DNA of 55,831 nt, the filler included, from Catajapyx aquilonaris (taxonomy: Eukaryota), in assembly GCA_000934665.2 (NCBI GenBank). It is 2 parts of 2 records of this genome, joined end to end, with 100 filler letters (N's around TTAATTAATTAA, not from the genome) between each part and the next. Parts side by side here need not be neighbours in the genome. Positions count along the whole stretch, not along the records: positions 1 to 27,820 come from JYFJ02004998.1; 1 more part is not named here. The stretch is one strand, 5' to 3'. Both the position numbers and the translations under genes were made by a program. The notes under the pieces are model-generated. The model made no database searches. It was not told the origin of the DNA and saw only the letters and a program-made list of their open reading frames with translations. Positions 3,033 to 42,692 of this stretch are shown in pieces. Numbering within the stretch: the first letter of the stretch is position 1; every line of letters starts with the position of its first letter.

Positions 3033-3241
3033 AATGGGAAGATATTATCATTGCATACGTATGCCTTTAGACTTGCAATAGAAACTGTCAGTAGAATAGA
3101 AGACATGGTCCTAAACATAATATATTCTTTTCCCTTTTCCTCTCACCCCAGGAATCAATCCAGGGCAGACTGGCAATGATGTCGCAAAGTTTCAAATTAT
3201 AACTCATCTGCATCACCAGACCATCAGTCATCAAACTTAAC

Positions 3242-3433
3242 CTCCACTCCAGGGTAATGTTGCGCGCAGAAGATGTCAAGGAATCTAGATCTGAGAGCCT
3301 TTGGTACCGACATGTTCACATGTGTGGCTCTTACACAAAGCCACAGGGGGTCCTCCCTCTCCCCTGAGGAATCATCTGACTCATCCTCAGGGAGGACCTC
3401 CTGTGGCTCAGGCTCCTCTCTCTCCAGACTCAT
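3242..3433 (-). CDS. Candidate acidic exon (MSLEREEPEPQEVLPEDESDDSSGERED...)
   Basis: Polypyrimidine tract and gacag| lie directly before the ATG at 3433. Donor GAG|gttaag at 3242/3241, or read-through to the stop at 3224. Confidence 0.5.
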
Positions 3434-4209
3434 CTGTCTTTACAGAAGAAAAACCAGCATTTAGCGGCTAAAGTTTAGCCATATAAAATAATTCAGGAAA
3501 ATGTGCCTTATGTGTCTGGGGTGGGCAACCTATGCCCAGTATTGGCTGGATTCAGTTGGGTTGATACCAACGAAATTGGGCCATTTTTGGAAATTGCAGC
3601 ATCTAAAGACTATTTAATGTTACCGTTTTTTCATGAAACATTGCATAGCTTTGAAACTAGAAATGCAGACACAGAGGGATGCATTGTACAATGCCAAGAT
3701 GCAATAACCTTTAGGAACTAACTACATCATATGATGCTAGTATTAGGTGAACTGGAAAGTTCCATGCAAATCATGAACTTCATTCACATTTTTACTTAAT
3801 TGTCAAACAACCACCAATTAATATTGTCTTCAAAAGTAGCACAATGTTAATGGCAAGGGGGGGAAAACACCCCTCAATTCAATATTTCCATTGCTTCACT
3901 TTTCTTACTTGCCAATCACACTACTAGCATTTACCAGACTAAAAATTATGCAAAGCACATCATCTTCTTCTCCATCAATTCAGATAAACATGAAGCCACA
4001 AGGACAAAGACCAATCAGTTCCCCACAATACTTGGCTTTCTTTTCCAAACTTCACACACCTGCTGTACTGATTTTTTGACAGTGTTACCACGTGACCTCT
4101 ATATGATTATTAGCCCCTCAAGATCACCTTGTAGGCCTCACATTTCACAATGACAATTCTCTTTCAAAGACTATCAATGTTCTTCAGCTAGTGCGGAAGA
4201 AGTACTTAC

Positions 4210-11698: not shown

Positions 11699-12062
11699 TA
11701 CTTGTCTTAGTCCCCTCTATCACCCCTGAAAGTCTTTGCAGAGTTACAATAAACACCCTGCATAACGGGAAACGGGATATAAACGGGCAAAACTTGCGGA
11801 GTACAATGCTTAAAAAAGTGACAGATGGGAAAATCTCCCCAACTCCAGTTTACAGTGTCTTCCTAAGCATGGCGAGGTGATACCAGGTAATCAAAGGAAG
11901 CACATTTTCCCATCAAGTAGCCAAGAAATAGTCTGTTATAGCCTTGATGAGGTGAAAATGAGTAGTCTACATCCAGAGTAAAAATATGCAGGGCTTTACG
12001 GAAATATGCAGGAACAGCCTTTCAAGTTTGTCATAACCTCGTGTATGTTAAAGACCCGGTTG

Positions 12063-12252
12063 TTATATCAGGAGTCAATGGTACTGTCAAACATCAATAG
12101 AAGATTAAGTAGAATCCATCATTTATATTCATTACTTGGTATTATCACCCAGGAAAAGTCCCTTGTCAGTACTGAAGGCTATTAAAACTCATTGAGATCA
12201 GAAGAATCTAGTGAAAACAAGTTCCTTTAAAAATGGCACTATATTTCCAATT
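12063..12252. repeat. Local duplication D (paralog 14739-14926)
   Basis: ttatatcaggagtcaat...gagatcagaagaatctagtgaaaacaagttcctttaaaaatggca...tttccaatt occurs twice. Confidence 0.93.
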
Positions 12253-12657
12253 GTTTGTGCTGAAGATTCCTTCCATCCGTTCCCCAGCTCTGTTAACTTC
12301 TGAAATGGTCCAGCCTGGGTTTGCTGCCCTCACCTTCGACATTTTGTGCCCCTTCTGCTGGCACCTTCCCCCTCTGTCCAGCAGGAGCTGGAACGTCACA
12401 GCGTGGCGCTTTCTGTCTGTCACGTCCATAGGCGTGGCACCGTGGAAGTTAACTTCATTTAGTGGCCACCCCAGGCCCAGAAGGTACAGGACTGCTTCTG
12501 TCCTCCCGGCCCTGGCAGCCACATGGAGGCCATTGTTTCCCCCATAGTCTCTCATTTCGGTCAGCCAGGCCAACCGCCCCCCAGTTTTGGCTGCCACTTC
12601 TCGGATCTTCGAGACTTGTCCTTCGATGCAGTACCTCAGAAAATCTTCTGGACTGAC
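12208..12657 (-). CDS. Ankyrin-repeat exon (about 2-3 ANK repeats)
   Basis: atgcag|VSPEDFLRYCIEGQVSKIR...DYGGNNGLHVAARAGRTEAVLYLLGLGWPLNEVNFHGATPMDV...FQLLLDRGG. An in-frame donor AAG|gtgagg lies at 12334/12333; read-through would stop at 12208. Confidence 0.8.
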   Translation of the reverse strand, partial: VSPEDFLRYCIEGQVSKIREVAAKTGGRLAWLTEMRDYGGNNGLHVAARAGRTEAVLYLLGLGWPLNEVNFHGATPMDVTDRKRHAVTFQLLLDRGGRCQQKGHKMSKVRAANPGWTISEVNRAGERMEGIFSTNNWKYSAIFKGTCFH

Positions 12658-12913
12658 CTGCATATCAGGAGGTAATTATACAGTGTAAGTACATACATAC
12701 ATAGACACCTGCACACATGCTGACATGACTTGTACATGCACATGCACCACGTACACATACATACATAGTCAATTTTTTCCGTATTAAAATTATTTCATAT
12801 CTTTCTTTAACAGACAATGGAATTATGTGACATGTCACGTGCATGTACTGTCTCAACCCTCACTTTCGTAGTTTTGTCAATTTTTATGCTAGGCATAATG
12901 TATGAGTAATGTA

Positions 12914-13420
12914 TGGACTGGCTCCGAGTGACTTTCAACTGTCTGGAACTTCGGATCCATGAAAAAACCCCTCCGCCGAAGCATTGGGAAAGTCTTTACA
13001 CGTTATTTTTGTGCCACAAATGCAGGGCTCTTGCAGGTCGGCCGACAGGCACACCTTATTGTTAGAACTCTCCGGAGCCGAATGCACTGGTATCATAGGA
13101 ATGTCACCCTCTCCTGTCCCTCCAGGATGCAAGTTTTGAAGGTGTGGCACAACTGCTTCCTGTACAACAATGTCCTAGCAATGGCTTCGCCGGAGGAGTT
13201 TTTTCATGGATCCGAAGTTCCAATCAGTTGAAAGTCACTCAGGGCCAGTCCAGGGGAGTAGTGCAGGTGTGGAAGCACCCAAATCCATGAAAAAAACGCT
13301 TCACCGATGGCATTTCCAGGACATTGTTGACTGTTGTTTACTATGAGCAGTTGTCCAGCAGAGGGTGCAACGACCACCAAAAAGTGGTTCCTAGAGGGCC
13401 TGCTCATGCTTCCAAACATC
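12914..13420. mobile_element. Mariner remnant with internal foldback (12914-13252)
   Basis: Minus-strand HYSPGLALSDFQLIG (YSPDL motif); inverted arms of about 70 bp. Confidence 0.65.
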
Positions 13421-14509
13421 ATATGTACTTCCAGAATCCTTACAAGTTGTCCAGTATATTATATAAAGCCCTTATACGAGGATATAGGAGGAGGAGGAGG
13501 AGGAGGAGGATATAGGATGAAAATGGCTGCACGGGTGCCGCTGGATAATCGGGAAATGGTCCTACATACCGCAAAAATGAGCTGCTCAGAGGTTTTTAAT
13601 TAACTACTAGTAATTTAACTAATAGTAAGTATTCCTAAGTTTGGTGTTCTTAATGCTCTTAAGTTGCAATGGTCATATTGGGCATCGCAAAATCATTGAG
13701 CCCTTACAGTCTGTGGGTAGCCCCATGAGACTCGCATGTAATTGTTCAAAATAATGAAAGCAAGTTGAAAACTGATAACCACTTTTTAAATAGGCCTACA
13801 CATCACACATGTATGTCATCTGTAAAATGATGATAATCTAGGTCCTTGAGAGTTGAGAGCTTTCAAATTTTTCCAATAAGAAAAGGCGTCAGAGGGCACT
13901 ACGTATGACACATTCGATTATTTCAATTTAGAGTAAATGACAATGGTGTATTGCTGGAGGCCAATTTTGTGTCACATGTTGTTTGGTGACAATAATTTTA
14001 ATATATTACTAGGAAAACTCTCGCTATGCTTGTATCATTCTCTGACACAGGCCTAGAAATCCAGTGAAACATCTGAATTTTGGCCTTTTTTGGGTACAGG
14101 GGGTGGGCAGGGGCAGGAAAGGGACTAGTGCAAGGCCCCTACACCAAAATTTGGCCAAAATTTGGATGTTTCTGTCGCACATATCTTGGAAATGACCGAA
14201 CAACAAAATTTAGAGGACTTCCACCACTGTGTTTATGGCACAGGATTGACCCCTCAAACGAATTTCAGCCAAATCAGAGGGGGACGGGTTTGGTCATTCC
14301 CTTATAAGTTAATGTTCCACTCCACTCTTACAGCATCAAGATGGAGGTCAGCTGAGAGGAACAATATTCACCGTTGAAGCTGTGCTTCCTTCTTCAGAAA
14401 ACAGAGAGAGACAGTTAACGGCATGCTAAAAGAGGCGTATGATGAAGACGTGTTCCACAGCATTACGAAAGCACAAAGAGTTCAGTGAGGCCAGTAGTCA
14501 GCTTTCAGA

Positions 14510-14677
14510 GGGTGGATTGCAAAGACAGAGTTTAAACCGCCGCTCAGTTAGATCCGGGTTTAAACCAGGGTTACGCTTGGAAAGACGGGGTTTAGCCCAC
14601 GATTAGCATGGAGAGAGGTTTAAACCACGGCTCAATTAGATCGCTGTTTAAACAGGCCACGTCTCTGCAATCCACCC
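14510..14677. mobile_element. Small MITE (PIF/Harbinger-like)
   Basis: TIR gggtggattgca / tgcaatccaccc with internal gtttaaac motifs; TSD unclear. Confidence 0.6.
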
Positions 14678-14914
14678 AAAGAGACAGATTTGCAAATAGT
14701 TCTGTTTCTGCACTCGCATCTGTTAAAGATGAGGCTGTTTATATCAGGAGTCAATAGTACTATCAAACATCAGTAGAAGAAAGTAGAATCCATCATTTAT
14801 ATTCATTACTTGGTATTATCACCCAGGAAAGGTCCGTTGTCAGTATTGAAGGCTATTAAGACTCATTGAGATCAGAAGAATCTAGTGAAAACAAGTTCCT
14901 TTAAAAATGGCATC

Positions 14915-15289
14915 CTATTTCCAATTAGGGTCACTTACCATCTCGTAAAAGACCTGCTGGGCCCTGCTCAGCCTTTCGTAAAAGGTGCGCACATCTGGCG
15001 TGGAGTCCCACCAGTCCTTGAGCGCCTTGTCCACACCTGCCCCCGTCAAGTCTGGGTTTTCCCTTCTCATATTTTCCTGGTGTTCTTGGAAAAACACAAC
15101 ATACGGCATTCCTGGGGTAAGTCGAGGAGTTTCGGGCTCCTTCCCCTTCCCCTTCCCCTTCCCCTTCCCCTTCCCCTTCCTTTTCCCCTTCCCCTTCCCC
15201 TTCTCGTACTCCTTCATCTCGTCCTCATAGCGCTTCTTGTCCTTCTCTGCGAGCTCATAGTAGGGCCTTCGCTGGACATCTGTCAGAGT
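14915..15289 (-). CDS. Divergent HMGB-like protein, exon B (box 1 helix 3, (KG)n linker, HMG box 2)
   Basis: cttcctcag|TLTDVQRRPYYELAEKDKKRYEDEMKEY-EKGKGKGKRKGKGKGKGKGKGK-EPETPRLTPGMPYVVFFQEHQENMRRENPDLTGAGVDKALKDWWDSTPDVRTFYERLS...; stop at 14915. A strong internal donor ATG|gtaagt lies at 14939/14938. Confidence 0.85.
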   Translation of the reverse strand, partial: TLTDVQRRPYYELAEKDKKRYEDEMKEYEKGKGKGKRKGKGKGKGKGKGKEPETPRLTPGMPYVVFFQEHQENMRRENPDLTGAGVDKALKDWWDSTPDVRTFYERLSRAQQVFYEMVSDPNWK

Positions 15290-15706
15290 CTGAGGAAGTC
15301 ATATAATTATGGTATTAAAATGATTGAGAGCTATGGGAATACAGCTATAAAGAAAATAGAGAAGACATCCACCATCATATAAAAAGCCAAACCTTTGCTT
15401 TGCAGAACAGGGTCAAATCTTAAAACTTTTTGTCCATATGCAAAACTCTCTAGACTTACATCTGGAGTGCAAATTGCTTGCTTGCAGTGCTTAATTTTTA
15501 ATTACTGGATTTAGCCTTGGCACTCCATGGCTCACTTTGGAGTGCAAATTAGACCATTTGATTCGAATACTGCGACCCCTGGTATAAAGAACATCAGAAG
15601 CACAAAGGAACTCATCACCAATGATCAGATAATATATACAGTGTCTACCCAAGGCCACAGTCTGGAAGTTTCCTTGTATGCCCCTGCATCTCCCTCTCTT
15701 TTCAGG

Positions 15707-15929
15707 TGCGCTTAGCAAGTCCCCTATCCCCGGATGTGGAGTCCCGCATACCCGGATGTGGAGCCCTGCACCAAATCGCATTCGGGTAACTGTTGCTGTG
15801 AATCTGCAAACTGGAGCTGAATGGGATTTGACGCTGTAGGTAAGTCCAGTACGGTTCAGAAGGCGTCTGCCTGAATGCGTTTTGGTTCAGGGCTCTACAT
15901 CCAGGGATAGGGGACTCGTTAAGCACACG
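15707..15929. repeat. Imperfect inverted repeat / MITE
   Basis: gtgcgcttagcaagtcccctatccccggatgtggag pairs with ctctacatccagggataggggactcgttaagcacac. Confidence 0.6.
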
Positions 15930-16409
15930 GCCTTCCCCATATGGCCAGATAGGGACTTGCGGGGGGCTGGGGGATGGATTACGATGGCTATTTGGAAACC
16001 AACCACCGGCAGTAATAAAATCTGAGGATGCGAATTGAGGTGACCTGATAGGGTCACACTGTACCAACCTACCCTGTGACCTAACTCTCCTTCCTTGCGG
16101 ACACACGTTCAGCATCCAAAAGCATGAGTTCAAAATTTCATATTGGTTTTCAGAACAGTTCCCGAAATATACTCATTGAAAGCGATGGAAGAAGTGCATC
16201 TTCCTGTGATTGTGATTTTGGTACCCCTTAAAAGAAATATTAATTTCTCGATAACTAAATTTAATCTCGTAAAACTGATTACTCCATAATTATAGAAGTT
16301 CAATTGGATGTGGGTTTCACATATATTTTTTTTCAACAAAATCGAAGACCATGACTGGACACCCTCTGTCTGAATTGAAATGGAACCAGCCAACTAGGCT
16401 TTATTTTAC

Positions 16410-16444
<35 letters not shown>

Positions 16445-18065
16445 CCCCTTATAGAGCTGCGCTCTTTTCGGGGGACACCACCACGTATACTTCGGATGTA
16501 ATTTGAAGGGCAAACAACTAGGTGACCTTGAGGTAGCCAGAGACCACTAGGCCACAGAAGAAGTCAGTCGCAGCCTTCCCCTTCTCGAGGGCCCTTTCTC
16601 TACCCTTTCAGTCATTTGTGGCAGAAGTATGCAGATTTCGCCACCTTGATTTTAACGGAATGAAGTACTATCCTTTGTGTGTATGTTCCTGGACTTAACT
16701 CAACTTTGACATATTTTGTGGGTTGAGACTTGACCCATTATCGCTTATATAACACTGCCCACTTGTGACATGCCTCATATGAATCAAGTATGAAAACAAA
16801 GGTTTTCGAAACCTTAGAATTCATATTTGCGCAAGAGCAGCCACATATGACAGGAGTTGTAACCCATACAACTCCTGTCACCAAATATGGCTGCTCTTGC
16901 TCAAATACATCACTAATTCCTAATTGTTGGGATCTAAATACTTGGACGTGACAGAGCATGTGACCAATATAATGCTACGCAGGTTTTTCTGATTACATTT
17001 TATAGGAAACCTAATTCCATAGGCGCATTCTCCCCGCGGTTCTCTTTTATTTGATGCATGATTAGGTGGATTGGGTGATTGGGTGTACCTGACCAGTCAC
17101 CTTAGGATTGTCATATTCGGTCAAAAGAGATGACAAGGTGTTGTACACCATAGTGTACAACACCCCTTGTCATCTCTGAACACTGCATATCAAGTTTCAG
17201 CCAAATTGCGAAATACCATAGGGAGGGAAAAAATCAATGAAGTTTGGAAATGGTGCCTTTTTTGATATTTTTTTTATATAATTTTTTTCAGTTAATCATT
17301 AGTGGAAGTGGTTGAAACCCAATCATACATACATACGTAACTTCACGGCATTGTCCCAAAAATAGGGTAGCCAGCAATGACATGCATGCATGTCATTGCT
17401 GGCTACCCACTGGCAACCACTTCCACTAACGACTAACTGAAAAAATTTATCCAAAAAAGGCCCCATTTCCAAACTTCCGCGATTTTTTCCCTCCCCATGG
17501 TATTTCGCAATTTGGCTGAAACTTGATATGCAGTGTTATGGCATAGCATAGGTGTGAATTTTTAAACCGAAATCCGAGATGATCTAGTAACATTTAGGCC
17601 CACTTGATTGGGAATAAACCCTTTATTGAGGATTTTTGTTTTTTGACTGTCACGAGGCCAAAAACAAATTGCAGACAAAATTAATGGTCATTATGCATTA
17701 CGAGTGACCTAAGGAACATGGAACTAGCGATGAATTTCCATGGACAGAAAAAATGTTATTTTTGTTGCAAGTGTAATCAACCACCCTCATCCCCTTACAT
17801 TGAACACTCATGATATCAGGTAGTGGTTCTGTCGGGGGGTTGTGGAGGTGGTGCTGGTGNATGCAAAATGCAGTGTGATGCAGTGTGATGGCCAAAATGT
17901 TTTCCACATCCACGCATTTTGATTAGACAGCTCATCTACCACCAAATGATACAACCAGCCAGTTATTCCTTTAGCCTTAACACATGAGGCCACTGCTTCT
18001 GTCACAAAATTTGACATTAACCAATCCCTGTATGTGCTGTTCTCAGTCAAAACTGACATAGATCA

Positions 18066-18310
18066 GGGGGAGGCGCAGTGGCCGAGTCGGTAATGACGCG
18101 GCTTGCTGAGCGAAGGTCCCGGGTTCGATCCCCACCCGTGAGCTCCTTTTCACCTGCGTCGGGAGGGTCACTGACCCGCGCCTAGGAGGTGTCTGGCAAC
18201 CTAACCTCCAGGGAGACTTCACATGACCCAGGTATAATGACATCGCACCTGCAGCCTTGTCTCCTCCCCAGAAACCCCCATCCCTACCTCATATCCTTTC
18301 TTCCCTGCAC
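18066..18310 (+). mobile_element. tRNA-derived SINE (related copy at about 30225-30398, minus strand)
   Basis: A-box gtggccgagtcgg, B-box ggttcgatccc; shared ggaggtgtctggcaacctaacctcc. Confidence 0.75.
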
Positions 18311-18446
18311 CGGTGATGAAGAAAATTTCAGCAAAAGTTGAAGAGCTGTAAATTGCAACAGTGCAAGGATATGGGCAGGCCATAGAAAGAGAGGGCAAAG
18401 AAAAATCATATTCCTAATGGTCTTTCTTATCTGCCACCCTCCTACT

Positions 18447-18887
18447 CAGCACTGGATTGGCGGCAAGGCAACCTAGGCGGTTGCCTAGGGCGGCAGCCTT
18501 CAAGGGTCAGCAAATTAAGGCATGCAAAAATAAGTAAACGAAAAAATAAAAATAAAAAAATTACTCGACTGGAAGCAGCTCTGGATTTACCATTGGGCAG
18601 AGTATGAAATTGCCTAGGGGCGGCTGCAAGTTGCAATAAATATTTTTCAAATAGGCTACAATGGTAGGTAATAAAGGCGAAAATGCAAAATTTTCGCCGG
18701 ATTTACCACGTGGCAGAAAAGCCTAAGGGCCTAAGTCGAATTATAAATTTTTATATAAAATAAAATGAAATGAAGGAGAGAACTGGATTAAAAAATTTAA
18801 TTTTTAAGCGGAATGGGGGGCAGGGAGTGGGGAGCAGCGGCGGATCTCAACTGCCTAGGGGCGGCCGGGGTGGTAAATCCAGCACTG
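18447..18887. mobile_element. hAT-type MITE
   Basis: Ends cagcactggatt...aatccagcactg, perfect 8-bp TSD ctcctact (18439-18446 and 18888-18895), repeated gcctagggg. Confidence 0.88.
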
Positions 18888-19259
18888 CTCCTACTGTGGT
18901 CTGACCTAACCCTTGCACTCTTGCAATTTACATCTCTTCAACTTTTCCTGACGATCATCATGTTCTGAGTTCTACTACGTATATCCCCCAACTGCATATT
19001 TTGCAGGAGGAGACTCACCACCCTGTAATATTGCTGTCTAAATTTCAATAAGAAAATTCAATTTGTGCACTAGCATTTTACAACAACCAATGAATCAGCG
19101 ATGCTCATGTTATACTTGTTTTGATTATCAATTGTTAAAGCATGATTGAAATTATAATTTTTTGTTGCTTGTTGCAATATTCAAGGGCACGTACATGTGC
19201 ACAGTTGCAAAATCAATACTGTGACACACAGAAAGACCAAATAATCCTTGATTAATTAC

Positions 19260-19394
19260 CTCCCAAATCGCAGTGTATTGCGCCACAAAAAGCTCTTCGT
19301 CGACCACTACCCTGGGCTCGATCCGCCGGCCTATCGCTCTGCACTCTTTCAGAAAATGGTGCAGCGCACTCCTGGGTTCCTCGGGCGTTGACAT
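19260..19394 (-). CDS. Divergent HMGB-like protein, exon A (N-terminal part of HMG box 1)
   Basis: aattcag|GAAAAGG then ATG. Translation MSTPEEPRSALHHFLKECRAIGRRIEPRVVVDEELFVAQYTAIWE|gtaatt resembles HMGB box A helices 1-2, with an intron just after the conserved W. Confidence 0.78.
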
Positions 19395-20151
19395 CCTTTT
19401 CCTGAATTTAACAGAGAAAACATGTTTAGAGCAGTGTCGAACCCTTCAGATGTTCAGCTTCAGGCTGTTTTTTTGTTGTTTTTTTTCATATATTGCTGAT
19501 TGGATCCATAATTGTTAATTAGACTAAGGATATAAAACAATGTGATGAACCATGGCGCCCAAAGGAGTTTATGTGTTTACTGTAATGTACTGAGAGGTCC
19601 CACCCTGTATGTGGAGACAGGGAGGTGAAATAAATGATGATGATGATGACATCCTTCTCAACTCCTTGGACTGTCAACATAATATTGGAAAAATATACAA
19701 TACATTACATGTCATAAGTCAGACAGAAAAAACCAATCAATGCAGTCTCTAGTTGGCAATAAAAAATGCGGATTCTTTGCATTCACTAGTGCATTCAGAA
19801 AGCGAATATTCGTTGCTATAATTAGTTTTACGAGTGCTATAAGCCTACCTGGTGATTGGGCATGAGTTTCCCTTCACCCTGTATATCAGATCAAATTGTA
19901 ATTGTCGGAGCTTCAAAACTCAGCAATGGTCATCTCTGTATGTGTTACTGTTTTAGAATTTAAAAATAAGCGCCATGACTTATGAAACAACCCTCGCATA
20001 AAAACGCTTTTACAAATACTCTTATGATTTAGTAGATCATTTCGGAATTAATTACCATACTGTATATAAAGGGGTGACTTCTGACACTTATTGGCAACTT
20101 TTCTGCTGTCCCATGAAGACATATTGATGGAAAATTCTGAACGAATTAACT

Positions 20152-25010: not shown

Positions 25011-26899
25011 ACCCTTGGCCAGTGGAAGAACAATGCGATCATATTGCTTGGGCACGCTCGACAGGGTGCACACAGTCTTGGATTGGCTGCAGTGGCGTAC
25101 ACACTCTTATACCTATAGGCATTTAGAAAGATTAGTATTGGTGTTAAGTTTTCAACCTCTGTTGTTTGTCGTGGGAAGGGCTTGTCTTTCTCTCGTGAAC
25201 CCGAAGAGCTATGCCAATGGTATCTTCGTCTACTGGCAGGGTCTCCCATGCAAGAGAGGTCTTTGGGGTCATGGGAGAAAAAGCCACCGTGTTGACTTAC
25301 CACAACAAGAAAGTTAATGAAGTTTCATTGCCATTAAAATTAGTTCCATTCTGTTTTGTCTATACTGGTTTTCAATACTATCTGCAGCTAAATAAAAAGC
25401 TGCTGTAGCTGGAATGGAACTGCAGTTCTCTTCTTCCTTTCCCTCAAACTCCCAACTCAGCATGATGGTCATGAGAAATTCCGGATTCACGAACAGTGTT
25501 TGAAGCAGGCTGTCCATGCAGCAGGTTTGGTCACTGGTTAACCAGGCCCACATATACCCACTGGATCTATCTCTTCCATCGGAACTGGCCACAGGGGCCG
25601 TAGGGGATTGACTGTCACTGCTGTGTCTATAGTCCGCTGGTTCTGTTTCCAGTTCCGCATGATTGTCTGTGAAAAGGAAACTGATGTACGATTCTTCAGG
25701 ACAGCATGTACAAGAAATGGAAAAGGAGATCATCAAGTTATGAGTGATTCAATTCCATAGTATTATTTACTTCAGATATTCAGTGCATATTCTTTCACTC
25801 AATAAAACTCTGTAAGTGTCAGTGCACAATTTTTGTACCACTGTTCTTAAATAAAATCACCCACATTCCTCACATTGACATTATGGCCACTTCCACACTT
25901 CCGGTGAATAAAATATATCTGCACAATGCATGTTAATATACTCAGGCTGCTAAACAAAAAGTAAGGAACCCCGTCAGGTAGGTACGACTGAATTTTTCCA
26001 ATCACCATGTTATACATTGGGCATCAAACACAAGGTTTTAAATATCCTGGAATGTATGCGTCCCTTCATGATGTCTTACCTTTTTCATTTAAATTAGGTG
26101 TTAGCCATCCCACTAGGCGTAGCAGGCAATGGCCTACTATCCGTTTATTTAACTATATAATAATAGAGCCCTGTGTTTGACTCGTAGCAACTCCCAGGCA
26201 AATTATCAAAAAAAAATGATGGTATGTATCGTTAGAAAGCTTGTTTAAATCCACGTTACATACATGCGAGTTGTTTCCCTATCGTCAGTCTCTAATTTTT
26301 TATCGCAAAAAGAAGGCGAAAAAGTGTCATTTTTTGACGAGTTGCCGACGTTATACACCGCAAAGTGATTTTTCTATGACACTTTCAGGAGGCCAAAAAA
26401 TCCCCCCCCCCTCCCCCGTGAACCCTGGATAGTGCACAGTCATCTTTGTCTATCTAATGATATATTTGAAACATTGAGATCGCCATTTCTGTAATCATAA
26501 TTAAGTTAATTGCGCACCTCTGTTATCTTGGCTGTTATAATCCGAATTACTTCGCGAATGTATCGACGGCAAGCCAGAAATGTGCGTGATAAGATTACAT
26601 TGTGCTCTATTACACTAAAAATTTTACACGATTTTAAGAGTACCTATCGCCGTCTATTCCCGCCAGAAAGCAAACAATGATTTTAAAAATTTTAGTGTAA
26701 TAGAGCACAATCCATATGTTAATAGGTAATTGGCATCGCTGGATCCGAATTTGCTGTCAAAAAGGTGATTACACCTTTATTTAAAATATTCGACAGCTTA
26801 AAAGGACAGTCCAGTGGTGCATGGTAATCAAGATAACGCCAGAGGCAAAAAGGGTCGTTAGGGGGGAAAGTTGGGACGGTTTTGTGATTTGGACAGGCT

Positions 26900-27820: not shown

Positions 27821-27920
27821 NNNNNNNNNNNNNNNNNNNNNNNNNNNNNNNNNNNNNNNNNNNNTTAATTAATTAANNNNNNNNNNNNNNNNNNNNNNNN
27901 NNNNNNNNNNNNNNNNNNNN
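27821..27920. other. Artificial scaffold join with six-frame stop linker
   Basis: 44 N + ttaattaattaa (27865-27876) + 44 N = 100 nt. Confidence 0.95.
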
Positions 27921-30694: not shown

Positions 30695-30831
30695 TGAGGA
30701 AATGCCACTTTTCAGTCAGTTTTAAAAGGATGGATTTTCCATTATTCCATTACTTGACCAAATAAAACCTTGATATTCAAGTTTGAAAGAAATTAATATA
30801 TTATATTTATCCTGCCATTTCTTCCACTTAC

Positions 30832-31016
30832 TTTGGATTGCGCCTAATTTCATCCAGCTGTCCAATCACACGGCTCAAATTGGACCGAAGCATGACAAAA
30901 GTGACATCTTCCTCTCCTACCACCTGGAATCGGTACTTGTTTTGAGAGCGGAACTTCACTTGGAGCAGCTCCACAATTGGCCGGCATTTCAGAATCAATT
31001 TCTTGCTTACAGCAGG
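30832..31016 (-). CDS. GNPTAB: GNPTAB coding exon 12 (last exon found; gene 3'-incomplete)
   Basis: aaatag|PAVSKKLILKCRPIVELLQVKFRSQNKYRFQVVGEEDVTFVMLRSNLSRVIGQLDEIRRNP AA|gtaagt. Not in the ORF track. Confidence 0.93.
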
Positions 31017-31429
31017 CTATTTTTGTTTTAAAAAACAAGTAAAATTAGACAACTTATTTAGTATTTGAAAATCATTTTCAGTGACATCTCAAAAATTTGG
31101 CAACTCAAGTCTGTCACAGATTTTAGAGTCTGCAATATTTCTAAGCCCACAAGAGACTAGTCCTTCTGGGTAAATATTAAGGCGAAGTTTAGTTTTTCCT
31201 TATGTCCAAAAATTCACCTATAGATCCACCCACCACTCCACACAAAGCCACCCTGCCAACCTAGGAAACCTGGCAAGATGACATTTCCAAATGGCTATCA
31301 CAATAATCTGAGAGTGGCCTATAATGGTAGGATGGCTTTTTATGGAGTAGTGGGTGGAACAGAAGACAATTTTCAGGTTTAGAAAAACCAAGAAAGTCTC
31401 TCGAGTCTGGTGTGGACTACGTCTATTAA

Positions 31430-32148
31430 CCCCTTCGCTACCAGATAGGCCCGAACCATATAGATTTTTGAATACGCGTACTCCGAAGATATGCACAATA
31501 TATTTGACAAATAATAACAGCGATACTTACCTGATCAGGGAAAACACTGATTGTGTCTGGAACAATTTTATTTGCCTAGAAGTCCCTAAATTAATTTCCA
31601 AAAACAAGGCTATAAAAACTCGAAATTAGATAACTGCCGACCAACTGTTAGGCTGATTTAATTATGAAATCCGTAAAAATATGCGGAATAACAACCTTGA
31701 GAACCATGCCAGACAAATTTGCTGAAATCGTCATTCTTTGCGAGAAACAAATGAATACTTATTTGTGGCTTTCTGGAAATTCCCAAATATCTTGTGAAGT
31801 GCCAGAAAGCCGCAAATAAGTATTCGTTTGTTTCTTGCAAAGTACGACGATTTCAGCAAATTTGTCTGGCATGGTTCTCAGGGTTGCTATTCCGCATATT
31901 TTCACGCATTTCATAATTAAATCAGCCTAACAGTTGGTCGGCAGTACTCTAATTTCGAGTTTTTATAGCCTTGTTTTTGGAAATTAATTTAGGGACTTCA
32001 AGGCAGGTAAAATTGTTCCAGACACAATCAGTGTTTTCCCTGATCAGGTAAGTATCGCTGTTATTAGTTGTCAAATATATTGTGCTTATCTTCGGAGTAC
32101 GCATACGCCAAAATCTACGTGGTTCGGGCCTATCTGGTAGAGAAGGTG
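31430..32148. mobile_element. Palindromic piggyBac-like MITE in GNPTAB intron 11
   Basis: ttaa|ccccttcgctaccagatagg...cctatctggtagagaaggtg|ttat; arms of about 350 bp. Confidence 0.85.
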
Positions 32149-32182
32149 TTATGTGACTGTCATACTCTGAAATAGCACCTAC

Positions 32183-32360
32183 CAATTTGGAATCATAGTA
32201 TCTCTCATATGGAGGTGTTGACACATCAGAGTAGTCTTCAGTAGACAGCTCCTGGGAACAGTTTATGATGATGTCTTCAAATTTCTGAACTGTGTTGTAC
32301 ATCAAGGGAAGATCATATAGCCGGGTCAGAAGGGTGCGTATTTCCCTGTCAGACCATGTC
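32183..32360 (-). CDS. GNPTAB: GNPTAB coding exon 11 (EF-hand / spacer 4)
   Basis: tcacag|G then TWSDREIRTLLTRLYDLPL...IINCS...YERYYDSKL|gtaggt. Confidence 0.94.
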
Positions 32361-32655
32361 CTGTGAGCATATGGCAGGTATGAATATTGAAACACTTGGC
32401 ATTAGTGCATTTGTAAGAAATATATAATTTAGGGCTTTTAGGCAGGTTTCATTATCATAGATGTTTAGCACCATTTACTTTGGAAATACAGTCGCATGGG
32501 AACCAAAGCATGGGATGATTTATTTTAAGAATACAAACCCATTAACTAAAGTATAGAAACAATATTCCAGGCCTAGTCAAGAACACCATTCAAATGTCAA
32601 GTTATTAATAACCCCTTAATTCAAGCTCTTTGAAGTTTTAAATATGCCTCTTACC

Positions 32656-32890
32656 AAGGGAGGCATGGTGGTCTAGTGGTTACGCCACTGGCCAGCCAAG
32701 CGGGAGGCCAGGGTTCAAATCCCGTCCCCGACATGCAGGGGCAGAATTGCACTCCCTACTCTTCCCAGGGCCAGGAGAAAAGGCCTGGTGTTTAAAGAAT
32801 GCCAGAAATGACTACCACACACCACCCTTCCTTGGGAACCTCCCCCCCCCCCCCAAGAGGGCCTCGGGCCCTATCACGAGGTATTTAAAT

Positions 32891-32953
<63 letters not shown>
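32656..32953 (+). mobile_element. tRNA-derived SINE inserted at the exon 10 donor
   Basis: 17-bp TSD taaatatgcctcttacc (32639-32655 and 32954-32970), A/B boxes, (AAT)n tail. Confidence 0.9.
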
Positions 32954-32955
<2 letters not shown>

Positions 32956-32969
32956 AATATGCCTCTTAC

Positions 32970-33122
32970 CCAGAATGGTCCATATCAAAAGTGTCAAATA
33001 TATTAGAGAGATCCACATCCTCTTTGGCACTCATCAGATAATAGAAGTAAGAAAATGAATACTGCATGTCAGTGGAGCTTCGTATTTTGTGGGATGAAGT
33101 CAACTCCCATTCTTCTTTGAAC
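32970..33122 (-). CDS. GNPTAB: GNPTAB coding exon 10 (CR3 end, EF-hand start)
   Basis: ggttag|G then FKEEWELTSSHKIRSSTDMQYSFSYFYYLMSA...IFDTFDMDHS GG|gtaaga. Confidence 0.95.
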
Positions 33123-33390
33123 CTAACCAAACATATTAGATGACATAATGAGACATATGACAACTATTTCTCTTAGGTCTGGCTACACAGTTGAAGATAG
33201 AGCCTCAACCACGAAGTTGTCCTTGTTACTGAGCAATCCCCAACAATTCATAACTATGACAAACCTGGGATGGAGCCTATATATTCCGTGGAACTGGGCT
33301 CCCAAACAAATAGCAACTGCTGTAATGGTGACTATGCACAGTTATAGCAATGCACCCTTGCCAATTTCTTGTTACTGACAACTAAATTAA

Positions 33391-34214
33391 CTCTTCTTAC
33401 CCTCCTAAATTTCAAAATTTGTTTGATTTTCTAATACGGCTTGGCCTGTAGTGTTGTGCAAACATCACCTCTGCTGCTAATTTTCATGTCAAAATACAAG
33501 CTAAAAGGCGATATTCAGAAGCCACAACACCTAGCAGCCGGTCGAGGGTTGCAGGTCCCTGGTCGCCATGACTGTAGCGCACTCTAGGGTGGCGCAAGCA
33601 AGTAGAATATGACCTCACACGCTTTGACATCACTGTTATGTAGTAATTTATTAATCAAGTTACCGAAGCAGTTTGGTGGAGTGGAGAAGGTGTTTGACTG
33701 CTAATCGGGAGGTCCTGGGTTCGAGTCCCGGGGCCGGCAATCCTAACCCTCGTTTTCTGTGGTTTCCCACGGTCCCCCAGGAGAATTCCGGGATTGCTTC
33801 CTAAATAATTAGGCCACAGCCGCTTCCTTCCGTCCCTATCCTATCCCAAAAAGCAAAGTAAAAATGACAGCAAAGAGTTCCAGTCAAAAGAAAAAAAATT
33901 AGGATGAATTCCCCCCCTAAAGAGCTGCCGGCTGTTAACGGGGTACGAATTTAATTCATTTATGAATCAAGTTTAATCAATCATTTACATATCACTGATA
34001 TCAGTCGCGATGACCGGCAACCTGCCTGTCGGGACCGGCGACCCACCACCCCCGACCGGATGCACATGTTGTGGGTTTGGATTTCAGTCTTTTGGCTTGT
34101 ATTTTGACCCTGCTAACGTGAAAATTAGCAGCAGAACTGATGTTTGCACAACACTATAGGTCAAGCTGAATTAGAAAATCCATAAATTTTCAAAATTTAT
34201 GAGGGTAAGAAGAG
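33391..34214. mobile_element. Palindromic MITE with nested SINE (family also at 48931-49402)
   Basis: Arms ctcttcttaccctcct..atttcaaaattt / aaattttcaaaattt..gagggtaagaagag. Confidence 0.78.
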
Positions 34215-34329
34215 TTAGTTTGGTTGTGAGCTGTGGTAACTGTTTGTAAGCTTTTATTATTGCTGAACATCCATTCTGGCTCTTCAAACTACATTGTACT
34301 CCCGATTATCCGGGCTAATGAATGCATAT

Positions 34330-34810
34330 GTGCCACCAGATAGTAGGAAAACATGGATAATCCCAAAATGGTCCTAGATACAGTGAAACCTTTCGTTGCA
34401 GTTGAATGTCCTCCTTGGAATACCCCGAACAAACACTTCCCACCTTCTCCTTCCAATTTTCTACTTCTTCAACATTCATGGCACTTTCATCACCACACAG
34501 TTTTCCAGGAAATTCTGTGCCTGTTGTGGAAACTTTCCAGCCACCCATTTGAAGCACTAAATTTTGCCACACCCAGTTTTTGGGCTTTTAATTTTGCCTG
34601 CTCTATTGGACCATCGGCCAGGACATGGGCAATACATTGAGCCTGTGTCAACCCCTTCCTCTTCCACGACATTTTAAAACTAGACTGAACAGTGAATTAA
34701 CTTGAAGGCAGGATATCTACAAATCACAAGTCACAATCTTCTTGGGGTCCCCCACAAGCCATATTTCTGTTTTCCAACCAAAAATAGTCCCTTTTCCTCA
34801 CAAATATCGT
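34330..34810 (-). mobile_element. Tigger/pogo transposase remnant
   Basis: DGPIEQAKLKAQKLGVAKFSASNGWLESFHNRHRI and CGDESAMNVEEVENWKEK...YSKEDI. Confidence 0.75.
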
Positions 34811-35576
34811 CAACGCCACAGGCTTCTAGCAATTATAGCAATTATGCAACACAGTATGGTGTTGGATGGTCCAAAAAGGGTTACTCATTCAGAGGCCTCT
34901 GGGAGGGCCCAGATTGAACTTGGCTGTAGTTTCTATTTTTGTGACTCGCAGAGATAATGTGAACCTTTTGATTTCCATTATGAACATATTTTCTCTGAAG
35001 GGAGCCAAAAATCCCTTCCGTGTCCGCTTTGGGCAGGTTCTGTAATAGCCGTCAAAAAATACATTTCATACCCTATGCATACGCCCTTTCTCCGAAAATA
35101 TTCCGCAATGGATAGGTTTTCACTATACCCAGGGTCCGTAATGGGCAGGTTTCACTGTACCATAAAAATGAGATATTCATAGATTTTTAATGAACTACTG
35201 TACATAGTGTATGCTGCTTTGCATAAGGTTTACTCAAAATAACAAAACTTACCATAGATTTTTAGTTTGTCTTCTAGAAAAAGTCTGTCATATTTTTCAT
35301 CTGTGAAACAAATTGACATTTTTCTGACTTTCATTTTTAATGTTACTTTTTGGCGATGCATGGATAATCTGCACCTGGATAATCAGGAGTACGGTGTACT
35401 TATTTCATAACATCTTCTTTTTCATGGAAAATTCAAATACACACTAGATAATAAAATTCCACTATAATTATACTTTAACCCAAAACAAATGCAATGCACA
35501 CTGTTGTCCCTAAGGTTATAATGACAAGGTAATAGAAATTAATCAAGCCCTACTGTAACCAAAGATAATTCTCTAC

Positions 35577-36160
35577 CTTTCCTGCATTTCATCAACCACA
35601 TGCTTGTCAATAAGATGGGGCATGTGTGCTGGAACTTTTCTTGCATCAAATCCAAATGCCTGGTTGTACAGTCGGTTCACATACAGTAGTGAATCTGCAT
35701 ATGCATCCAGTAGGCGCCTTGACTTATAACTCTCAAGCAATATTGAAGAAGGAGTCTTCAGGTCATTAGTTTCCAGGCCTAAAATTTTCCTCCTCTTTGG
35801 CCTGCTTAAACTGGACTCCTTGAACTGGGATCGGAGAAAAGTCCAAAATGCCTGAGCCTTTCGTTTGCGAAGTCCACTTTGTGTCAGGAGACCTTTTTCA
35901 AATTCATCTTGCAGTGTAGACCAAGTTTCTCGCACCAATAATGGAAAGTCTGATGACAAACTGCCTGCCTTTGAATATTTTGCTTCCATTTCTTCAATGT
36001 CAGGAAGTTCCTGCGAGATTATCCTAGGGGATACAGGCCTGTTTCCAAACCCAGGGAATATAAAAGTAGTCTTGGTGGATGCTTCAGTGCTGGTTTGTAC
36101 TTTCAGGTTATTGAGATTGGAATCTACAGGATTTGTATCCACAGTCACGATGAAATTAAA
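35577..36160 (-). CDS. GNPTAB: GNPTAB coding exon 9 (DMAP1-binding-like, S1P site, start of Stealth CR3)
   Basis: ttacag|FNFIVTVDT...LQDEFEKGLLTQSGLRKRKA...RRLLDAYADSLLYVNRLYNQAFGFDARKVPAHMPHLIDK...QE AG|gtagag. Confidence 0.94.
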
Positions 36161-38683
36161 CTGTAATGATGAACACAAAATGATTATGCCCTTCTCAGGG
36201 ATACATTCTGCAGCAGACAGGAAAAAAGCTGCACGTGCAATGTACAGTAAGGTCTAGAATTGTCTGTCCAGCTCCATTATACTCATGCAGCTTGCTACAG
36301 TAGTTTAATTGAGATGGACAAGCAACTCTCTATATTACACATTGTAAGTGCAGCTTTTATCCTGTCAGGAGCTGATATGGCCTAGGGATTAAATGAAATT
36401 CTAGCTAAGCAGGAGGTTTAGGGTACTAGTCCATGCTCTGAGAGACGGTATCTTTGGGTCTCATCTTTATCTGTGGCCAAGGACAAGAGGAAAGGTGTGT
36501 TGGTATGCTACCATTGTGCATTTCAAAATGCACATTGGGAAAAAATCAATATTGTCTACTTTCAAGCTTGAAATTGATCTTACAGGAGGCAGACATAGCT
36601 GAGCTTTTTGCCAACACAATTATGCTAGTAAGTTTATGTAAACCTTGAAAAGATTGGTAAACGCAAGCGAGTAAAATTTGAAATCACTTTCAATCTGTTA
36701 TCCCTTTGAGGTCTACATGCATCATAATTATGATATCCTGAGCTTTTTTGAATTTGGCACGCTAGGATGTGCATAGAGAATTCAAACTTTGCGGTTCCAA
36801 ACGCAGTTCAATATGCTCCTGACATCTCTTGTATGGTGAGTAAACTACCATAGCAATCCCAGAATCTCTCTCCCTCTCCCTCCCCCCCACCCCCCACCCC
36901 CTACCCCCGGTTCCCGCCAAGTAATTTTCTTCTCATGCGAGTGCTTATGTAAACATCCGCCAGCCATGCAGGGTGTCCCGTAAAGTCTGGACCCTTGTTA
37001 GTTTCCCATAATTCAGTGTTGCGGTAACATTATGTAACCCTAATAACAATGAATAGTGACTGAGTAAACTTGTTAGGCCTATTGACATTGTAAGAGCCAA
37101 ACAATTCTAAAAAAATTATTTCTGGGACACTCTGTGGATGAATTTTTTCCGGCATTTTACATTCAAAAGGACCACCACGAATTAAAATGATTAATTTTGT
37201 AGCGAAGTTGATATTTATTAATATCACTCCTACAACGAATTTTGGACAAAAAGGGGAAAAAACGGCCCATTAACCTGCCAAAAACTCTGCCGACAAAGGG
37301 TTAATAAATGCAAAAAATATTTTGGCGGATATTTTAGGTTGAAAAAAGGTCTTCAGAGCTCTCCCGATTTCTTTATACTATATAGCAATATTCACACTTT
37401 CATTCAAGTGTGCAAGAATAGTGGCATGTTATATGACCTCCCCCCCCCCTCCCCCAACACAGCTCAAGGCCATGTCCATCACATGAAATGGCATAAATTT
37501 TAGTGTAGTTGCTCCTAACAATGTAGACAAAAATGTGACACTCAGTTTTGCCATATCTATTCTGGCATTGCAAAAATGCTGTACATAAAATTGATAATGT
37601 TGCAATTATTTTCAATACGCGATCACCACAGGTGGCACTAGGAACTTTCAATAACTTAAAATTTGTTCAATAAATGGTAGATGAAGCCCAAGTTTTCGAG
37701 TTTCATCTTGTTCACTATAAGTAATATTTCAAAATATCAATGGCTATGCAATACTGGTAATGCAGATTGAAATGAGTAATTCAATGTGTAACTATAATTT
37801 GGTTCACATCAATTTCATCAATTCCAGATTTTGTGCAAAATGGGCACCTGTAAATATCATCAATCATACAACTAACTCCCTTATTCTGTCCTTCTGCTTA
37901 TATGTCTGTCAACACTCATCGCCTAGGTAGTACTTACAATAGTTTTCACTTTCCCCGTTCAACAAATATTAAATGACATATAGCGGTCAGATAGGATGGG
38001 ACCCACTTCAATGGAAGCGACACGTGTGCTGCTTATAGCACCCTGGTGGGCTTTGTCTGCATGTCACTCATCACCAATGTGCATATAGTACTACTTTCCC
38101 CCTAAGCATGGCAGTGGTATGCAGAAGGAGAGCCTATGTGCCAACTGGTAGGGGCCTATGGTACTACTTCCAAGTGGGGGGATGGGCCAGGCATTGTTGA
38201 CAAAATTTGGCAACGAGTCTGCTACTAGTTATCTACTATTGTCCAAAATAATTAGATTAAAATTATCTCAGATTCCAAGCACTTCTTGTGATTTGAAATG
38301 CAACCAATTTCAAAATGGCGAACATCAAACATGGATTTTTGTAATACCAGAACAAATATGACAAAACTGCCTTTCACTTTTTCATCTAACAACACTACGA
38401 ACCATTAAAAAAAAAAAAGTTAACAGTGGTTTCAGGCAAAAACAATGGTGCAACACACATGTGAACTTTCATGATAAGGGTCAAAAATTTCAAGTATATT
38501 GGCTCCAGAGTGTGGGTTAAAATAGTTATATTTTAGAACCTTGCTGTGGCAATTCTCATTTGCGCATTGCAAATGAGAATAGCCAACCAACATCTGCCTT
38601 CCATAACTCAGCTGGCTAGTTGGTAGCCATGGTTAATGCTTGCCCATCTGAATGAGGCCCAAGTATAACTGCTCTGCTCTAAC

Positions 38684-38886
38684 CTCTTCATCCATGTCAT
38701 CTTTTCCTAGAATGATTTGCAGATCTATTGTAGTTGTATTGAAGTTTGGAAGTAAAACTAATGTGAGGACTTGAAACTTCAGAGAAATTGAAATTGTTCT
38801 GACAACAGCTTCTCCATTGTAACTTCCTTCCTTCACAGTAGCATTCCTCATCACATCACTCAAATTGAAATATCCAACAGTTTCAC
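38684..38886 (-). CDS. GNPTAB: GNPTAB coding exon 8 (spacer 2)
   Basis: ctacag|GT then ETVGYFNLSDV...EGSYNGEAVVRTISIS...NTTTIDLQI...DEE|gttaga. Similar to human GECLPYFSF...EGAYSDNPIIRHASI. Confidence 0.88.
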
Positions 38887-38961
38887 CTGTAGGTATTTCA
38901 AAAGTAAATTACAAGGTGAATGAAATGAACAGGTAACTTATCTGATGGAAATAGTGTGTAC

Positions 38962-39076
38962 CTTTTGGAAGAATGTAATTGTGCACTCGTTTATCCAATT
39001 TCCATGAATATATGTTGTGATATCCCGACGTTCCACAATCTCCAGCATCAAATCCGCATGACAAATGATTGCAGTT
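38962..39076 (-). CDS. GNPTAB: GNPTAB coding exon 7 (end of LNR 2)
   Basis: ttgcag|NCNHLSCGFDAGDCG...HNYILPK G|gtacac. Confidence 0.93.
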
Positions 39077-39168
39077 CTGCAACAGCATAGTCAATATCAC
39101 ATGCATTGTTGACTTGAAATTTTGCATTAACTTTAAATAAATAATAAGTTCATGAGAGACTTCCTCAC

Positions 39169-39456
39169 CGAGTCACAATACTTGTCTGCAAGCCAACTAT
39201 TAATGCAGTTTGGTGCACAGCTTCCTTTGTCCACATCTCCATGCCAAAAGTCCAAGTCATCTTCACCACCTGTATCAATGTCACCACCTCCTCCCAAACC
39301 ACCCCCCTTCCCTTTAGCATGTCCATCTTTCTCATCACAGTCACCTCCATCCCACATACAGTCTTGGTTATTGCATGCCTTATCACAGTATCCATCTGCT
39401 ATCCATGATGAAGGGCAGCCTTCCTTGCACTCGGGAACTGGCCAGGACAGATACAC
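39169..39456 (-). CDS. GNPTAB: GNPTAB coding exon 6 (LNR/Notch repeat 1 and start of repeat 2)
   Basis: ttccag|VYLSWPVPECKEGCPSSWIADGYCDKACNNQDCMWDGGDC...CAPNCINSWLADKYCDS|gtgagg. Confidence 0.96.
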
Positions 39457-40146
39457 CTGGAATTAAAACAGAAGTGTAAAATTTTAATAGCAGGGTAATG
39501 TAAAATGTGTTGAAACACTCAGCTCATATCCACATAAGTGAAAACTTTGCATGTGGTCATTTCCTCTTGTTCTTATTGCCTCATTTACAAGTATAGGACT
39601 GGGATATGTGCAACACTGGAAAGTTCCATGTTTTATAATGGTGTATAGGGGCCTGCACTCTAATGTGGCAGAGGGGGGTTGATTGGCAACGCCCCGCCCC
39701 CTCTTGCCCTCCCCCCTGCCACTGCCACGACTCCCTCCCTCACCTGTCACCGCAGTCACAACAGAACCCAGCTTCATATCCTTTTATTTCAACCCCCTAA
39801 AGCCCTACTGTGATAACAATTAAACCTTCAAATATTCCTCACGTGATGTGCAGTGGTTTTTCTTGCACTAAACATCTTAACGTAAACCTTGAATGGCAAT
39901 AGAATACACATTCTATGTACACGTGCGTTGGCTCCATTTAGGGCCTTTCAGCCATTGCCTGGGAGTTAAGACAAATGATGCCTATACATAACTACACTTG
40001 AAGATGAAGCAACTGAGCTGAAGCATCCATAAGAGTTCCACTGATATGGATCTGAACTAAACTCTATAACACACAGTATAAAATGATGTGGTTTCTAGAG
40101 AAATTGGAATAAAACGGAATAGGTTTCAAAAATTTTACACCATATA

Positions 40147-40746
40147 CAGGGTGTATCAGTGTCACAGGTCAAGCGCGTGCAAGGGGGTGGGGAAAAATTG
40201 TAGGTGGCGACAACCCCGGTCGGTTTTATAAAACAATTAGAAATACGGCAGTAATCAATTTATTTATTACGGCTGTATGGTGTGACGTCACGTCCTTTCT
40301 GTTCGAATTGAGCCTGGCGCGCACGGCAAATGCAAGGTAAGAGTGCAGTGGTTTGAAGCTGGTTGACGGGTTTTTAGCCTTGCGGGTTGCACTGAAAAAG
40401 GCGCTCTCATGCTACACCGGCAGAGTACTGAACACACTCCTGTACAGTAGTACACTACTTTGTACAGTACCCTACCGGTGTAGCATGAGAGCGCCTTTTT
40501 CAGTGCAACCTGCAAGGGTAAAAACCCGTCAACCAGCTTCAAACCACTGCACTCTTACCTTGCATTTGCCGTGAGTGCCAGGCTCAATTCGAACAGAAAG
40601 GACGTGACGTCACGCCATACGGCCGTGATAAATAAATAGATTACTGCCGTATTTCGAATTGTTTTATAAAACCGACCGGGGTTGTCGCCACCTACGATTT
40701 TTCCCCACCCCCTCGCGCGCTTGACCCGTGACTCTAATACACCCTG
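40147..40746. mobile_element. 600-bp near-perfect palindromic Tc1/mariner-type MITE
   Basis: TA|cagggtgtatcagtgtcac...gtgactctaatacaccctg|TA. Mirror ORFs 40288..40542(-) and 40353..40574(+). Confidence 0.92.
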
Positions 40747-40785
40747 TATTTACTAAATAATGTGCTACTGTGGAATGCAACTCAC

Positions 40786-42428: not shown

Positions 42429-42473
<45 letters not shown>

Positions 42474-42692
42474 TCATACAAAATCCCCTATTACTCAAAG
42501 CATAGTAGAACCCTGATTATCCAACCTCAGAATATCCATCTCCTCAGCACATATGTCTGTTCTGCTCCCCAGGACCGACTTTCTTCACCAAAAATAAATG
42601 TTTTCTCAACAAATACTGCACTGCACTATGTATGTGTTGCCTGATTTAAATATTGTAAATACAGTACAGTAGACTCTGCATGTAAAAGATAT

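Follow-up and report, generated by a model that had tools for sequence, protein, structure and literature searches.

Within the 55,831-nt stretch of Catajapyx aquilonaris DNA analysed here (the window), the first 27,820 bases, which are a single contig (C2854) of the 286-Mb genome assembly, carry two exons encoding diverged HMG boxes (A and B) followed on the same strand by an exon encoding ankyrin repeats (K). Judged by its homologies, this HMGB-derived locus belongs to a family of HMGB gene duplicates whose parts have been shuffled, and its coding modules are all phase 0-0. We put the chance that A, B and K are spliced into one messenger RNA (mRNA) for an HMG-HMG-ankyrin protein at about even.

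Exons A and B and the ankyrin acceptor lie where an earlier sequence-only reading of this DNA had placed them, all in phase 0 and free of stops (Table 1). The donor of exon A is GTAATT; exon B has an AG acceptor and the donor GTAAGT, whose GT is retained in six of six derived copies. Pfam bears out the HMG box claimed for exon B, with 47.1 bits against HMG_box (cut-off 25.4) for the open reading frame (ORF) of the exon and 30.2 bits, also above the cut-off, for box B by itself. By itself, exon A matches no Pfam family, and BLASTP does not align it with its counterpart in the parent. Once spliced to exon B, its score against the parent box A is 40.9 bits, which none of 200 shuffles of exon A reached (maximum 36.2), in agreement with the claim of two tandem boxes. 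On this alignment, exon A is still a coding sequence for the first part of box A, and its comparison with the paralogue on C6372 gives a lower proportion of non-synonymous differences (pN 0.31) than of synonymous ones (pS 0.60; Fisher p 0.009). The hydrophobic core of both boxes is retained when they are aligned with the parent.

The parent can be named within the same genome, which holds two conserved HMGB genes, one on C1635, with an acidic-tail exon, and one on C7524, whose tail exon is probably the one on C3517. The two are 89% identical in exon B, with a ratio of non-synonymous to synonymous divergence (dN/dS) of 0.14, and structural matches of the parent exon B to HMGB1 reach E 2e-29. 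The introns flanking A and B are 87-92% identical to those of C7524 (89-91% around exon A) and share its exon boundaries and phases; the donor at 14939 was therefore inherited from the parent. The A and B exons themselves share only 24-34% protein identity with it. As these matches read, exons A and B, introns included, go back to a duplication of the C7524 copy and have since diverged. The derived B copies keep their donor, yet a tail exon was found at only two places, C1635 and C3517 (among the best 40 of 672 and of 1016 candidates, in candidate lists crowded by repeats), and none in the window.

Other derived copies are scattered over the assembly. Exon A recurs intact on C6372 and broken on C4399 and C10319, exon B recurs on C1976, C2326, C1331 (two partial copies) and C839, and short basic exons carrying the acceptor of exon B lie on C1976, C11327, C8492 and C7423. 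On these last four contigs and C839, short phase-0 exons with Lys/Arg clusters use the acceptor or donor of HMGB exon B; they resemble nuclear-localisation stubs excised from the HMGB linker. Downstream of a diverged HMG exon, C1976:5800-26600 holds tandem modules, each made of a tiny Arg-rich exon and a Pro/Ala exon; their introns are alike and their exons variable. Genome-wide there are 77 HMG_box matches at E ≤ 0.1, many of them short repeated exon pieces on small contigs (C4725, C3237, C5692, C3461 and C7634 among them), which may hold more expanded HMG families.

The ankyrin repeats reported downstream of B are confirmed (Ank_5, 35.8 bits; cut-off 27), and the acceptor at 12657 is present. 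The predicted model of K, with a predicted local distance difference test score (pLDDT) of 89, has three helix pairs, and its Atlas matches are all ankyrin. K as the end of the protein is not supported: the exon stops at a phase-0 donor (AAG/GTGAGG, at 12334) that is kept in all three intact copies. Divergence from both copies on C6619 is 8-18 per 50 nt within 12657-12334 and 0-4 per 50 nt outside, and these edges identify K as an internal exon ending at that donor. The segment 12208-12333 differs from C6619 at 4 of 126 positions, compared with 8-15 per 50 nt within K, and so evolves like an intron.

K has been under purifying selection in all three pairwise comparisons (pS 0.49-0.51, pN 0.13-0.16, p ≤ 8e-8). 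Codons 1-35, which precede its first Met, are also constrained (p 0.009 to 1e-6), and because selection reaches these codons, K was translated from an upstream phase-0 exon. Simulated random change of equal amount placed a stop in K in 75% of trials.

A genome search with K gave 137 matches among the best 150 of 342 candidates. Its close copies are two in tandem on C6619 (77% and 74% identical) and a shortened one on C4989; a large family of ankyrin arrays matches at 25-52%. The acceptor and 5' part of K match a host ankyrin exon, C3439:19297, and since this match is the better one, derivation of the K acceptor from that of exon B was rejected. An HMGB-like donor context at the end of the C3439 exon was likewise discarded, as the homology goes no further. 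The 3' side of K aligns to the box B DNA of the parent with a 2-nt deletion (a score reached by 1 of 500 shuffles), and the sequence beyond continues into the parent HMGB intron. When the window is compared with itself, the 216 bp that follow exon B reappear behind the ankyrin ORF (12038-12252) at 90.7%. By these alignments, K arose when an ankyrin exon of the host became fused to the 3' portion of a different copy of HMGB exon B; the box of that copy has since decayed into intron behind the new donor. Ankyrin-exon matches number at least 137 genome-wide, and on C6518, C5938, C6322 and C3354, ORFs like eIF2-alpha kinases (motifs read from translations) lie directly beside ankyrin exons.

The layout is consistent with splicing of B to K. 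On their strand, the nearest phase-0 donors upstream of K are those of B, 2.3 kb away, and then A, and only two acceptor-like sites between B and K are richer in pyrimidine than the acceptor of K. The intron segment at 13543-14083 matched only the window's own loci and C1976 (among 147 overlapping loci, 630 kb), and the tandem joins K-K on C6619 and B-B on C1331 fall inside shared HMGB-derived arms. We propose that recombination in these shared intron arms both homogenises the arms and carries old, diverged exons from copy to copy, and that it would have placed K behind B; the transcript would then be spliced A-B-K-P1 and continue past the contig, using an acceptor inside a repeat insertion upstream of exon A. 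The lineage-specific chimera first proposed is plausible and has gained support: K is conserved as an internal exon, and its 3' end and downstream intron derive from an HMGB exon B.

Several observations weigh against the A-B-K transcript. K lies behind a B-type exon at one of five loci examined, that of the window; it does not follow B at C1976, C1331, C839 or C2326 (35, 23, 7 and 2 kb downstream examined, respectively). On C6619, an HMG exon is absent from the 7.7 kb upstream of the K copies, these contigs being short. The selection on K is historical and need not stem from the B-K arrangement, the comparison of exon B with the copy nearest to it shows no significant selection (p 0.18), and no promoter or first exon was identified for the HMG-derived gene. 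If the acceptor at 19670 is used, the insertion places five ATGs before the main one. The predicted model of exon B is weak (pLDDT 59; helices 61-77, 83-96 and 98-116) and had no match at E ≤ 0.001 in a fold search, though ranks 1-5 were HMG boxes. The boxes have also lost their basic charge, with net charges of -4 and -2 versus +8 and +3 in the parent. Close relatives are lacking in the protein searches: exon B gave 2 matches of 8000 candidates (longer search) and 2 of 4959 (near search), the K ORF gave 4 of 784 (longer search), and the best 150 of the 23296 matches of K against all representatives are all repeat proteins 25-41% identical to it.

That the B-K adjacency is seen once, with only 410 bp of shared sequence upstream of K, would suit B and K not being joined at all. 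K, as a derivative of exon B, could be an alternative to B, giving A-K or A-B, or it could have been parked there by recombination and be skipped or belong to another unit. Both exons end in the same intron arm and both are phase 0-0. A spacing of 2.3 kb is, however, no steric bar to joint inclusion, both K copies in the C6619 tandem have complete splice sites, and an A-K product would split box A. We regard this reading as unlikely.

The insertion bears more directly on whether the present copy works. It has 96-97% identical copies on C6388 and C3167 and is absent from C6372, and because it carries a polyA signal and a trinucleotide tail we class it as probably a truncated retroelement without long terminal repeats (non-LTR). 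Its 8-bp target duplication includes the start codon of exon A. The acceptor just 5' of the exon A ATG, at 19402/19401, belongs to the insertion, the ancestral one being at 19670; two other copies of the repeat have it in identical form, so it is fortuitous. The chimera could thus once have been real and this copy recently disabled at its start codon, making it a young pseudogene. The similarity of the insertion to its other copies, its absence from C6372, the five added ATGs and the fortuitous acceptor would all fit, and broken family members do exist (C4399, C10319, C1331b, C4989). Nevertheless, the frames of A, B, K, P1 and P2 remain open and their splice sites intact, and the insertion acceptor is no poorer in pyrimidines than those of B and K (11 versus 10 of 15 positions). 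Recent inactivation seems to us improbable, at roughly one chance in a handful.

The sequence-only reading had also proposed a short HMG-only isoform made by read-through after B. This did not hold up, as the read-through tail is the start of the parent intron and is present in the conserved HMGB copy. A related alternative makes K the last exon, with its stop at 12208, and the read-through a regulated isoform. The frame is indeed open to a stop in all three K copies, and two ATTAAA motifs lie 0.9-1.3 kb behind the read-through stop, at 14002 and 13600; these were the only such signals, with no AATAAA found at 9-15 kb on the minus strand. Yet divergence falls to the intron level exactly at the 12334 donor, the tail beyond it is a frameshifted box B remnant, and the read-through peptide, sitting in the parent intron, reads differently in the other HMGB copy, C1635. 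We consider K as a terminal exon very unlikely.

With K as an internal exon, the gene would run on. No stop codon was identified downstream of K before the contig end, which puts the end of the gene off the contig. P1 and P2 (Table 1) are candidate Pro/Ala exons 3' of K. Positions 1-1621 and 17434-18682 of the window match C1976 at 91-95%, in the same order as in the intron before exon B, and this order suggests that a further family exon may lie just past the contig end. Two other segments were considered as exons and rejected. An acidic 69-codon ORF at about 3224-3439 (minus strand), tried as a replacement tail exon, has 10 matches in the genome and is linked to the Pro/Ala module; several of its copies are frameshifted, it is conserved no better than its flanks, and it is probably non-coding. 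A 20-nt stretch before 9750 lacks the AG in some copies.

The family shows old exons in young introns. Synonymous divergence between K copies is 0.78-0.84, versus 0.00-0.03 in the flanks; it is 1.26 versus 0.03-0.05 for exon A against C6372, and 1.19 versus 0.09-0.14 for exon B against C7524, the larger values being near saturation and resting on few sites. Across these exon comparisons dN/dS is 0.16-0.56, and in all three exon types the edges of divergence coincide with splice sites. Positive selection alone is ruled out by the fourfold sites of unchanged amino acids, of which 13 of 36 differ versus 11 of 408 intron sites (p 9e-10). Exchange between intron arms, together with selection keeping the exons distinct, fits this pattern best, and the tandem K-K and B-B joins inside the arms suggest that the same exchange shuffles exons. 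In the conserved HMGB pair, the tail exon has no excess divergence (14/123, 41/354, 9/69), but the synonymous divergence of exon B is 0.38, so part of the effect may be general.

Two other explanations of the pattern were weighed. In the first, the exons were mutated in a targeted way rather than preserved within homogenised flanks. The match of the edges to splice sites in three exon types is what this would give, and the derived exons share 38 states with C7524 versus 28 with C1635, a slight lean towards the copy with which they have introns in common. This bias does not reach significance (p 0.27), near-identical pairs have no exon excess (1/130 versus 3/297 and 0/84 versus 6/322), only 4-5 of the 22-25 synonymous changes in K are of CpG type, and pN is well below pS. 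We give targeted mutation very little weight. In the second, C6619, C6372 and C1331 represent alternative haplotypes of the same locus, where balancing selection has maintained old exon alleles and allelic recombination has evened out the introns. Flank divergence of 1.5-5% could be allelic, and flank differences are 0-1 of 100-113 among K copies and 2 of 113 among B copies, versus 7 between types. Three K variants and three B-type variants exist, however, two of each in tandem on one contig, and homology ends after 0.6-1.7 kb. We consider the haplotype explanation unlikely, though a live alternative. Returning to exchange with selection, a broader and speculative extension, to which we assign a low probability, is that the HMGB-derived arms permanently serve recombination among a repertoire of old, mutually diverged phase-0 exons and continually generate combinatorial nuclear proteins. 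HMG variants, basic stubs resembling nuclear localisation signals, ankyrin, Pro/Ala and Arg-rich modules would make up the repertoire; an expressed HMG-HMG-ankyrin gene would be one product, and its diversity would be kept by genetic conflict or pathogens.

The charge of the boxes bears on the function proposed for the chimera. DNA bending, which the sequence-only reading had favoured, finds no support in the net-negative boxes and changed intercalator positions: Phe38, Phe103 and Ile122, which we take to be the intercalating residues of HMGB1, read Glu, Val and Gly by alignment. HMGB1-like bending by the encoded protein is unlikely. The linker, in turn, has a net charge of +10. The two low-charge HMG folds and this strongly basic linker might anchor the ankyrin module, with its three units, on chromatin or on HMG-binding partners. 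Given the mRNA, we hold such a nuclear adaptor to be about as probable as not, and consider that a tether or decoy in the nucleus, using its small ankyrin module to bind proteins, is more likely than an HMGB-like bender.

Table 1. Parts of the HMGB-derived locus, in order of transcription (window positions)
Feature	Position	Strand	Description
Exon A start, ancestral	19649..19670	minus	acceptor 19670 as in parent C7524 and paralogue C6372; short 5' untranslated region and first copy of the duplicated target site; ATG at 19652
Repeat insertion	19399..19648	minus	250 bp, antisense; polyA signal, trinucleotide tail, 8-bp target duplication
Exon A	19260..19394	minus	135 nt, 45 codons; first two helices of HMG box A
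Exon B	14939..15289	minus	351 nt, 117 codons, phase 0-0; homologue of parent exon C7524:3423-3761; box A helix 3, basic Gly-Lys linker (net +10), HMG box B
HMGB-inherited intron start	14713..14938	minus	91% to C7524 over 125 nt; repeated at 12038-12252
Intron segment shared with introns of family locus C1976	13543..14083	minus	
Exon K (ankyrin)	12334..12657	minus	108 codons, phase 0-0, internal exon; three ankyrin-type helix pairs and short basic tail
Decayed HMGB box B remnant and old intron	12208..12333	minus	frameshifted; open frame to stop at 12208
Candidate exon P1	9837..9878	minus	14 codons, Ala/Pro/Ser-rich, phase 0-0; member of a multicopy module
Candidate exon P2	2487..2540	minus	18 codons, P1 paralogue, phase 0-0

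Elsewhere in the window, an inverted-repeat element lies upstream of exon K (12914-13252), and a frameshifted PIF1-helicase fragment, probably a Helitron remnant, lies just downstream of exon P1 (8384-9308, minus). At 25317-25748 (minus) there is a degenerate fragment that resembles USP47 around its catalytic Cys (E 0.052; UCH E 0.039), probably a piece of a pseudogene, and at 43934-44254 a partial DDE transposase. A GNPTAB-like gene at about 30800-45350 (minus), with matches to Stealth CR1, CR2 and CR3, the GlcNAc-1 regulatory domain, LNR and, weakly, DMAP, lies upstream of the HMG-derived gene on the same strand, with the gap 27821-27920 between them; its last exons were not located.

The HMGB family is defined by two lysine-rich boxes plus an acidic tail (PMC3388995; this and the other sources compared here are cited from excerpts). 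Like HMGB1 and insect Dsp1, the locus has two tandem boxes, and it shares exon boundaries and phases with its direct parent. It differs in having no acidic-tail exon, net-negative boxes and an expanded Gly-Lys linker, and in the ankyrin and Pro/Ala exons that follow the boxes. We do not assign it to HMGB because neither the basic boxes nor the acidic tail are there. On the ankyrin side, K corresponds to the first half of the exons of the host ankyrin arrays, some of them beside eIF2-alpha-kinase-like ORFs, and is 28-35% identical to them; array exons hold about six repeats, whereas K has three helix pairs and an HMGB-derived basic tail.

Short of a search by architecture, none of the 154 retrieved ankyrin proteins has an HMG box and none of the four HMG matches has ankyrin, and no HMG-plus-ankyrin protein was found in the literature by title and abstract, in a coverage that leaves out most subscription journals; in the same coverage, papers listed for lineage-specific HMGB duplicates held nothing relevant by their listings. 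If unspliced, the locus is a decaying duplicate of interest only for its divergence pattern. If spliced, it would encode a domain combination found in neither the database nor the literature searches, with both parents and the fusion scar visible in one genome, so that the steps of exon shuffling could be read directly.

In family structure there is a likeness to the Dox family of Drosophila, young multicopy chimeric genes that were assembled around a diverged HMG box from parts of several host genes and spread by way of shared flanks (10.1101/2021.08.05.454923). Dox itself derives from protamine, lies on the X chromosome with 359 satellite at its flanks, and has been shown to be a driver (10.1101/2021.08.05.454923). 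In the present locus, by comparison, the donor is HMGB, the arms are HMGB introns and the partner is ankyrin. The Sp100HMG isoform originated by retroposition, whereas here the HMGB introns were duplicated too. Sp100HMG resembles the predicted protein in being a nuclear protein with two HMG domains spliced to unrelated domains; it is a vertebrate protein with C-terminal HMG domains and, in the excerpt, no ankyrin (PMC7882683).

Paralogues alike in their introns and diverged in their coding exons are also described elsewhere. Divergence peaks under gene conversion occur in exon 5 of the primate long- and middle-wavelength (LW/MW) opsins and in colobine RNase1 (PMC3924837), and venom PLA2 genes have conserved introns with a non-synonymous rate (KA) close to or above the synonymous one (KS) (PMC7285919). 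The present family differs from these cases, as excerpted, in the size of the synonymous contrast at K (about 30-50-fold), in affecting whole exons of three types and in its link to exon shuffling, and from the venom genes also in a dN/dS below 1 (PMC7285919). With synonymous divergence of about 0.8 in exons versus 0.02 in introns, it shows with unusual sharpness how old exons can sit in young introns, and lends itself to a test of the model of conversion plus selection.

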